Of a stretch of DNA of 41,822 bases, positions 28,694 to 28,881 are shown one piece after another. The position numbers were made by a program, and so were the translations under genes. This DNA comes from a virus (lineage: Duplodnaviria > Heunggongvirae > Uroviricota > Caudoviricetes): the IMG/VR virus record IMGVR_UViG_2897346870_000006, one strand, 5' to 3'. Each line of letters starts with the position of its first letter. Position 1 is the first letter of the stretch. The notes below the pieces were generated by a model. That model saw only the letters and a list, made by a program, of their open reading frames with translations. It did no database searches and was not told the origin of the DNA.

Positions 28694-28710
28694 TCTGACT
28701 TACGAAAAAG

Positions 28711-28744
28711 ATATGTTGCGGGAGGCTTTGCCTCCGCAACATAT
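28711..28744. terminator. Strong hairpin, candidate terminator (T-tract on the minus strand)
   Basis: ATATGTTGCGGGAGGC-ttt-GCCTCCGCAACATAT, a 16-bp stem with one bulge; A-tract on the plus strand upstream (T-tract on the minus strand). Confidence 0.5.
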
Positions 28745-28831
28745 AAGTGGAGCCCTCAAGCCACTTCCTTTAGAAGCACTACCTTGCTTCTTACTATATA
28801 AACCTTCTGTTATATATTACCCTTTATTTTG

Positions 28832-28855
28832 GGGGCGTTTCCACGCCCCATTTTT
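28832..28855 (+). terminator. Intrinsic terminator (plus strand)
   Basis: GGGGCGT-ttcc-ACGCCCC followed by ATTTTT. Confidence 0.5.
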
Positions 28856-28881
28856 AATAACTTTTAGTAAACAATTGCATA

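Follow-up and report, generated by a model that had tools for sequence, protein, structure and literature searches.

The closest described relatives of the locus analysed here are the ipeX loci of the DLP12 prophage of Escherichia coli K-12 and of phage PA-2. In the accessible parts of the literature, IpeX from K-12 and PA-2 is described as a small and stable RNA, either transcribed as part of the porin mRNA or released from it by processing, that represses OmpC and OmpF post-transcriptionally. The available excerpts of reviews describe its effect on ompC as independent of Hfq, treat this independence as partial and as concerning at least one target, and state that complementarity fails to explain the regulation by IpeX, for which they use the label 'novel mechanism'. 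In K-12, ipeX occupies 574365-574531 of NC_000913 on the reverse strand, a length of 167 nt (supplement of PMC8313858); this span reaches from the stop codon of nmpC to a point just past the U-tract of the terminator, and its sequence is identical to that of the lc 3′ UTR of PA-2. Three other systems offer points of comparison: MicC and MicF, which are proven, chromosomally encoded antisense regulators acting in trans, the pR′-qut-tR′ cassette of lambda (6S RNA region), and the nmpC 3′ UTR of P7 and P1/P7-like phage-plasmids, a homologue that has diverged but presents its elements in the same order. We propose that the interval 28694-28881 of the window, by which we mean the whole stretch of 41,822 nucleotides that was analysed, belongs to a PA-2/DLP12-type ipeX locus, that it would form the tail of a porin mRNA and lower OmpC and OmpF, and that it is predicted to pair with the leaders of ompC and ompF; taken as a whole, this account is very probably correct.

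The interval between the porin gene and Q

As judged from the window and its gene calls, the interval lies in an E. coli lambdoid prophage. On its left, the porin gene (27611-28693, plus strand) is of the Lc/NmpC type, encodes 360 aa, is matched by Pfam Porin_1 at E = 1.9e-151 and ends, according to the gene calls, in the stop codon TAA at 28691-28693. Its product is 91% identical to PA-2 Lc in a protein comparison, and the gene is intact, unlike the K-12 nmpC gene of DLP12, which is interrupted by IS5. The facing gene (28882-29265, minus strand) encodes a Q antiterminator of 127 aa, of the QuuD type and the Q21/933W family (PF06530, E = 6.7e-54), and the lysis genes S, R and Rz are found beyond the porin gene (27021-25875, minus strand). 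The porin gene and Q are convergent, and, with the former ending at 28693 and the latter at 28882, the non-coding interval of 188 bp that had been placed between them is indeed 28694-28881. Directly upstream of Q, at the position held in lambda by the nin genes, lies a DUF968 gene of 331 aa (29283-30278, minus strand) with a weak HNH-nuclease-like match. A consensus scan also returned a terminator-like hairpin inside the porin coding region (28365-28387, plus strand), with a 10-bp AT-rich stem followed by a T-rich tail, which is probably a chance match.

The original prediction had equated the interval with the nmpC-quuD interval of DLP12 and suggested that it encodes IpeX, and the alignment proposed as a check bears this out. 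The 188 bp are ~94% identical to the DLP12 interval, and positions 28691-28857 (plus strand), which begin with the stop codon of the porin gene and close with the intrinsic terminator, form an IpeX orthologue of 167 nt that aligns with K-12 ipeX end to end, with 157 of 167 positions identical (~94%), eight substitutions and two one-base indels. As in K-12 and PA-2, the element lies directly 3′ of a prophage porin gene, convergent with a quuD-type Q gene, and shares the length, the hairpins and the terminator of its counterparts; the region from the porin start to S is 95% identical to PA-2 and DLP12. The matching interval, porin and upstream region indicate the same module and the same sRNA locus as in PA-2 and DLP12, in a different allele. 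On the strength of the alignment, the interval is a variant copy of the already described IpeX, so that the element itself is already known, and, on the same comparison, the porin mRNA carries IpeX as its 3′ UTR.

This locus is widespread in E. coli. The interval and its flanks occur at 100% identity in many E. coli chromosomes and temperate phages, for example 4A7, ev017 and ev207, and the 188-bp interval is present in 2509 of 5426 complete E. coli genomes; 677 records of complete E. coli genomes carry the window allele at an identity of at least 99%, Nissle 1917 and UPEC 536 having an interval of 100% identity, and K-12-like alleles, which fall in the 90-95% identity band relative to the window allele, account for 1822 records. 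The changes that distinguish the window allele from K-12 and PA-2 are nearly all located in loops or unpaired stretches. A 19-mer scan of species-representative genomes gave mostly chance matches outside E. coli. Among the matches listed from complete E. coli genomes, none has an annotated feature under the interval; the RefSeq record of K-12 lists micC and micF and holds no ipeX feature between quuD and nmpC (NC_000913 572000-580000), and neither ipeX, nmpC nor quuD has an entry in the Term-seq supplement of PMC7815308. A search of the whole window against Rfam 15 at gathering thresholds returned no matches, and no matching family is apparent, so that the Infernal check was unable to confirm IpeX; given that there is no Rfam family and no ipeX in the RefSeq K-12 record, the element looks unannotated everywhere. 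Matches to Rfam at E values up to 10 within 27000-29300 (sau-19, Trp_leader and others) were rejected as chance-level, generic likeness to hairpins and terminators.

The RNA structure of the interval is real and far above chance. The plus-strand RNA 28691-28858 folds at -53.6 kcal/mol, compared with -31.2 +/- 3.2 kcal/mol for dinucleotide shuffles (z = -7.0), and the minus strand of the interval folds less exceptionally (z = -4.0). Of the two hairpins initially described, the first was said to have a 16-bp stem and a minus-strand T-tract. The hairpin and the T-tract are both present; the stem of this hairpin 1 (28711-28744) has 15 pairs and a 1-nt bulge, close to the figure given. It can form on both strands, as the 5′ stem-loop of IpeX on the plus strand and, on the minus strand, as a hairpin of -21.9 kcal/mol (z = -6.2; equalled by 0 of 200 shuffles) that is followed by CUUUUUCG at 28710-28703, of which CUUUUU is 28710-28705. 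The second, with a plus-strand T-tract, was also recovered: the GC hairpin GGGGCGT-TTCC-ACGCCCC (28832-28849, plus strand), with a stem of 7 bp, the loop TTCC and an energy of -13.8 kcal/mol, appears in the consensus terminator scan and is followed by AUUUUU in the RNA. The Rho-independent terminator at the end of IpeX, and thus of the porin/IpeX transcript, is GGGGCGTTTCCACGCCCC followed by ATTTTT (28832-28855). Three further plus-strand stem-loops stand between them: hairpin 2 (AAGTGG / CCACTT, 28745-28766), indicated by the fold and by compensatory changes, hairpin 3 (AGAAGCA / TGCTTCT, 28772-28791), predicted by the fold, with three pairs that change on both sides and 98.9% of cells paired, and a weak AU stem seen in the fold (28795-28816).

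These features suggest how the RNA may arise. Porin transcription heads towards Q, and the mRNA would pass from the stop codon through four stem-loops before stopping at the GC hairpin and U-tract at 28832-28855; the tail of 167 nt would be IpeX, either within the porin mRNA or after processing. The mechanical list of open reading frames includes a frame of 58 aa at 28713-28889 (plus strand), from which one might suppose that the interval encodes a small protein. This frame starts within hairpin 1, has no visible ribosome-binding site and extends across the terminator; common alleles carry a 1-nt indel in the T-run near 28826 that shifts the frame inside it; a coding function is given next to no credence here.

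Position of the late promoter

In lambda, pR′, the Q-loading site and tR′ lie directly downstream of Q, and the interval resembles the lambda cassette in that it is downstream of Q and carries a hairpin and a T-tract on the Q strand. Late regulatory elements had been predicted within it, and its location directly downstream of Q, together with the strong minus-strand hairpin followed by CUUUUU, would fit a late-gene switch composed of pR′, a Q-loading site and tR′, in which this hairpin and T-tract would be tR′. The interval is nevertheless not homologous to pR′-qut-tR′ of lambda, and a scan detected no sigma-70 promoter-like site in 28694-28881. The real cassette of this phage is located elsewhere, at 27241-27152 on the minus strand, by alignment with the annotated pR′/tR′ of 933W (Y10775.2) and H-19B. 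It comprises a -35 element TTTACG (27241-27236), a spacer of 16 nt, a -10 element TATGCT (27219-27214) followed by the conserved initial transcribed region TAAGAGTGGTTAC, and tR′, whose hairpin (27183-27162) is listed by the terminator scan and followed by a T-run, all on the minus strand. The cassette lies upstream of S, between the 5′ end of the porin gene and the holin gene, ~1.5-1.6 kb from the end of Q, and the segment is conserved at the same place in PA-2 and DLP12. Moreover, hairpin 1 persists in copies of the P7 type and in plasmid copies, near which there is no Q gene. The placing of late regulatory elements in the interval is thus not upheld, and a late-gene switch at this site appears very improbable.

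The location of pR′/tR′ between the porin start and S implies that the porin-IpeX unit is a moron, set between Q and pR′ in the reverse orientation. As read from the gene order, this moron comprises the porin gene with its own promoter region, the IpeX tail and the terminator.

The comparison with 933W and H-19B extends to Q itself. The Q protein of the window matches the Q21 structures 6p18 and 6jnx at E = 4e-8, and is 81-84% identical to Q of 933W and H-19B over residues 1-120, with a length of 127 aa here versus 144 aa in those phages. The homology ends at residue 120, from where both the DNA and the C-terminus diverge, and this point coincides with the overlap between pR′ and the 3′-terminal part of Q in 933W. 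In the 933W record (Y10775.2), pR′ is annotated across the end of Q, with tR′ ~45 bp further, and the window sequence downstream of Q has no similarity to the pR′/tR′ region of 933W. According to a preprint, C-terminal residues of Q21 contact RNA polymerase, so the altered tail of Q in this phage may matter.

Since CUUUUU follows hairpin 1 on the minus strand, this hairpin could also terminate transcripts leaving Q. In P7-type homologues the position of hairpin 1 keeps a hairpin, with neither the A-tract nor a nearby Q, which makes a conserved role likelier in the plus-strand RNA. From this comparison, protection of the 5′ end or a processing boundary of the plus-strand RNA is the more likely conserved role, and hairpin 1 would probably stabilise the 5′ end of IpeX; termination of Q transcripts, which would otherwise run antisense into the porin gene, may be a role added in the lambdoid copies.

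Complementarity to the ompC and ompF leaders

An AU-rich, weakly structured segment at nt 107-139 of IpeX (28797-28829, plus strand) is antisense to positions -31..-3 of the ompC leader. A windowed duplex search places the core of the match, 15 consecutive pairs formed by nt 111-125 (28801-28815, plus strand), across the ompC Shine-Dalgarno sequence; a second helix of 9 bp with the ompC leader is predicted at 28821-28829 (plus strand). In the local alignment, the reverse complement of IpeX, AAATAAAGGGTAATATATAACAGAAGGTTTATA, is matched to ompC -31..-3, AAATAAAGG----CATATAACAGAGGGTTAATA. The segment is the least structured part of IpeX, with a local fold of -1.9 kcal/mol, and directly precedes the terminator.

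Energy-based duplex tests were low in power. In a crude energy-only test against shuffles, the AU-rich ompC duplex reached z = -0.5 for the window allele and z = -1.5 for the K-12 allele, with -1.6 for the MicF-ompF control, and whole-length RNAduplex comparisons of IpeX with porin leaders gave unrealistically long duplexes, the MicF-ompF control reaching only z = -1.2. Pairing was for this reason judged by alignment-score tests with positive controls and a background of real DNA. The reverse complement of IpeX scores 32 against ompC -81..+30, a value that none of 1000 dinucleotide shuffles reaches (maximum 31), and the maximum over 4112 real-DNA windows of this prophage is 26. The positive controls score 32 (MicC-ompC) and 29 (MicF-ompF) in the same test. 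For ompF, an overlapping stretch of 14 nt matches positions -13..+1 at 13 of 14 positions (p about 0.02), and the leader of the phage porin itself has no significant match to IpeX (p = 0.24). For IpeX-ompC the duplex energy is -26.7 kcal/mol, compared with -22.8 for MicC-ompC, -15.9 for IpeX-ompF and -11.9 for IpeX with the phage porin leader. Both partners of the predicted ompC duplex are highly conserved: the 15-bp core is invariant in 43 of 43 distinct variants, above the level of the surrounding loops, and among 5426 E. coli genomes, 5364 have an ompC leader of at least 99% identity.

In its predicted complementarity, which is extended but imperfect and covers the region of translation initiation, IpeX resembles MicC and MicF, with a match of equal strength in the same test, and its site on ompC (-31..-3) overlaps that of MicC. 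IpeX and MicC share no significant sequence similarity (p = 0.11), and IpeX differs from both MicC and MicF in that its seed is near the 3′ end, before the terminator, instead of at the 5′ end, and in that it is the mRNA 3′ UTR of a horizontally acquired porin gene, for which pairing is predicted. The features of IpeX relevant to Hfq are a U-rich stretch before the terminator and the 3′ U-tail. A longer duplex with ompC would fit the Hfq independence reported for this target.

We propose that the accessible AU-rich segment (nt 107-139) would pair with ompC -31..-3 and mask its Shine-Dalgarno sequence in the manner of MicC and MicF, and that the shorter overlapping stretch would pair with ompF -13..+1, whereas the phage porin, whose leader lacks a site, would escape. 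In this manner IpeX would lower the synthesis of OmpC and OmpF, and the lysogen would exchange its host porins for the phage porin. The strength of the match, the accessibility and conservation of the seed, and antisense matches of the P7 homologue lead us to prefer a mechanism in which antisense pairing would directly block the ribosome-binding sites of ompC and ompF, a reading that draws on sequence comparison. Neither this pairing model nor a wider IpeX family was found described in the accessible literature. The abstract of Castillo-Keller, Vuong and Misra from 2006 reportedly states that ipeX was found to have no complementarity to the ompC leader; their study may have missed the pairing, or may have examined it and judged it insufficient, or the activity of ipeX may reside in another part of the RNA.

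It can also be hypothesised that IpeX acts without base pairing, for example through stem-loops that titrate a protein or an RNase, the complementarity to ompC being a relic of an inverted porin 5′ end. Such an action would agree with the four stable hairpins of the RNA and with the review excerpts available, in which complementarity is held to be an insufficient explanation and the effect on ompC to be Hfq-independent; the likeness of the minus strand to ompN and ompC 5′ regions beyond the pairing site would likewise fit a fossil. On the other hand, the match equals in strength those of MicC and MicF, whose antisense action is proven, when all are tested alike, and it falls on the ribosome-binding site and within the least structured part of the RNA, beside the terminator. 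The seed is furthermore conserved above neighbouring loops, and the diverged P7 copy keeps antisense matches to both ompC and ompF. An action without pairing is considered unlikely, albeit deserving of serious attention, and direct occlusion remains the favoured mechanism.

Conservation, distant homologues and origin of the element

The lambdoid set was made up of 43 distinct variants, collected from viral contigs and from genomes; as identity is at least 90% throughout, covariation among them alone is weak. The polymorphisms that are common either lie in the loops of hairpins and in unpaired stretches or shift the bulge of hairpin 1 with the stem kept; one of them disrupts an A-U pair in the weak AU stem, and in the terminator hairpin the allelic differences are confined to the loop. 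At this low power, the pattern in the 43 copies is suggestive of a constrained fold.

A more distant comparison is provided by the nmpC 3′ UTR of phage P7 (L136, 2014-2205), which aligns with IpeX at a score of 56 that none of 1000 shuffles reaches, and which presents hairpin 1, hairpin 2, hairpin 3, the AU-rich segment and the terminator in the same order. This copy differs from IpeX in that only ~70% of the core is alignable, the terminator is different and is preceded by a longer spacer, and the flanking gene is ssb, not Q. The P7-type element is found in 116 plasmids, including IncK2/Z and IncI1/B/O replicons, with variants down to 81% identity, and the plasmid records (loci L138-L141) include Klebsiella, Salmonella and E. 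fergusonii. At the position of the terminator, the P7-type and plasmid copies carry others that differ completely, but hairpins 1-3 and the AU-rich seed are kept. The P7 homologue has antisense matches to ompC -6..+12 (p = 0.005) and ompF -11..+9 (p = 0.002), so that its seed matches around the start codon, whereas that of IpeX matches the Shine-Dalgarno region.

Covariation was examined for hairpins 2 and 3 in an alignment of 10 sequences from lambdoid, P7 and plasmid copies. The two hairpins are paired in 98.2% of cells, and both sides change in 6 of 17 pairs, compared with 0-1 in slid-partner controls; most of this covariation comes from the single deep split between lambdoid and P7-type copies and thus represents few independent events. 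In hairpin 2, AU<->GC and AU<->UA compensatory changes separate the lambdoid from the P7-type copies, and G.U pairs in three sequences fit the plus strand only. As these would be A.C mismatches on the other strand, they point to a conserved structure in the porin-strand RNA.

These observations also bear on a simpler interpretation, in which the interval would merely hold a pair of convergent terminators, shielding the porin gene and Q from one another, and this allele would have no RNA function in trans. Both terminal hairpins do bear T-tracts on the appropriate strands, and the window allele differs at 10 positions from the sequence studied in K-12 and PA-2. Insulation would, however, have no need of three additional internal stem-loops, two of which are kept by compensatory changes in distant copies, nor would it account for the invariance across alleles of the core of the 33-nt ompC antisense match, and a trans effect has been published for an RNA of ~94% identity with the same seed. 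Insulation as the sole function is deemed improbable, and we retain the interpretation of the interval as an IpeX allele.

With regard to the origin of the element, the minus strand was compared with porin 5′ regions under a softer scoring scheme. It matches the 5′ region of ompN, from the leader into the signal-peptide codons, at a score that none of 500 shuffles reaches, and most of the ompC leader at p = 0.002. This likeness to the ompN and ompC 5′ regions suggests that the element resembles an inverted, decayed porin 5′ end, and such an origin of IpeX is plausible from the comparison. An inverted porin 5′ end was once proposed as the origin of micF. The broader proposition, that IpeX is a classical antisense RNA whose seed derives from an inverted porin 5′ end and whose design has been kept across lambdoid prophages, P1/P7 phage-plasmids and IncK/IncI plasmids, is put forward as tentative, somewhat short of probable.

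Several other copies of the module were noted in viral sequences. In one viral contig (L091, ~3860-4587), an IS200-like element (Pfam Y1_Tnp, E = 5e-38) is situated between the porin stop codon and hairpin 1; by separating the body of the sRNA from the porin transcript, this insertion provides a natural experiment on the dependence of IpeX on read-through from the porin promoter. In two others (L096 and L124), homology is lost immediately 3′ of the IpeX terminator, which marks a recombination or insertion boundary in both; the L096 junction is AATAACTTT / GGTAATGACTCC, and we take the sequence beyond it to resemble an IS1 end. The phage 434 isolate 434B (L131, OL657227.1), a laboratory derivative of 434, carries the nmpC::IS5-ipeX-quuD segment of K-12 DLP12, which is annotated in its record as non-homologous, with a crossover in ylcG, and is an example of a phage that has acquired the porin-ipeX module from a cryptic prophage. 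A 'porin' of Salmonella phage SPF_0923 (L137, ON032529.1) was discarded because it is a chromosomal ompN flanked by ydbK and uspF homologues; the presence of ompN with its chromosomal neighbours indicates that this record contains host chromosomal DNA.

The assignment of this interval to IpeX fills in a feature that is absent from RefSeq and Rfam and present in nearly half of the complete E. coli genomes. The analysis also indicates that the late promoter of a widespread Q/porin/lysis module is not beside Q, which matters for the modelling of late-gene and toxin expression. To the known element, it adds a pairing model, a plausible origin, and a wider family in P7-like and conjugative plasmids, in which two hairpins are backed by compensatory changes. 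Since 2006, descriptions of IpeX have left its mechanism without an explanation, and the specific and statistically strong prediction of pairing with ompC and ompF, together with the diverged homologue in P7-like plasmids, makes the question testable. The pairing model suggests how mobile porin genes may displace the host porins, which serve as phage receptors and as entry routes for antibiotics. If the broader proposition of a conserved antisense design is true, the porin gene and its IpeX tail would constitute a portable cassette for replacing the host porin.
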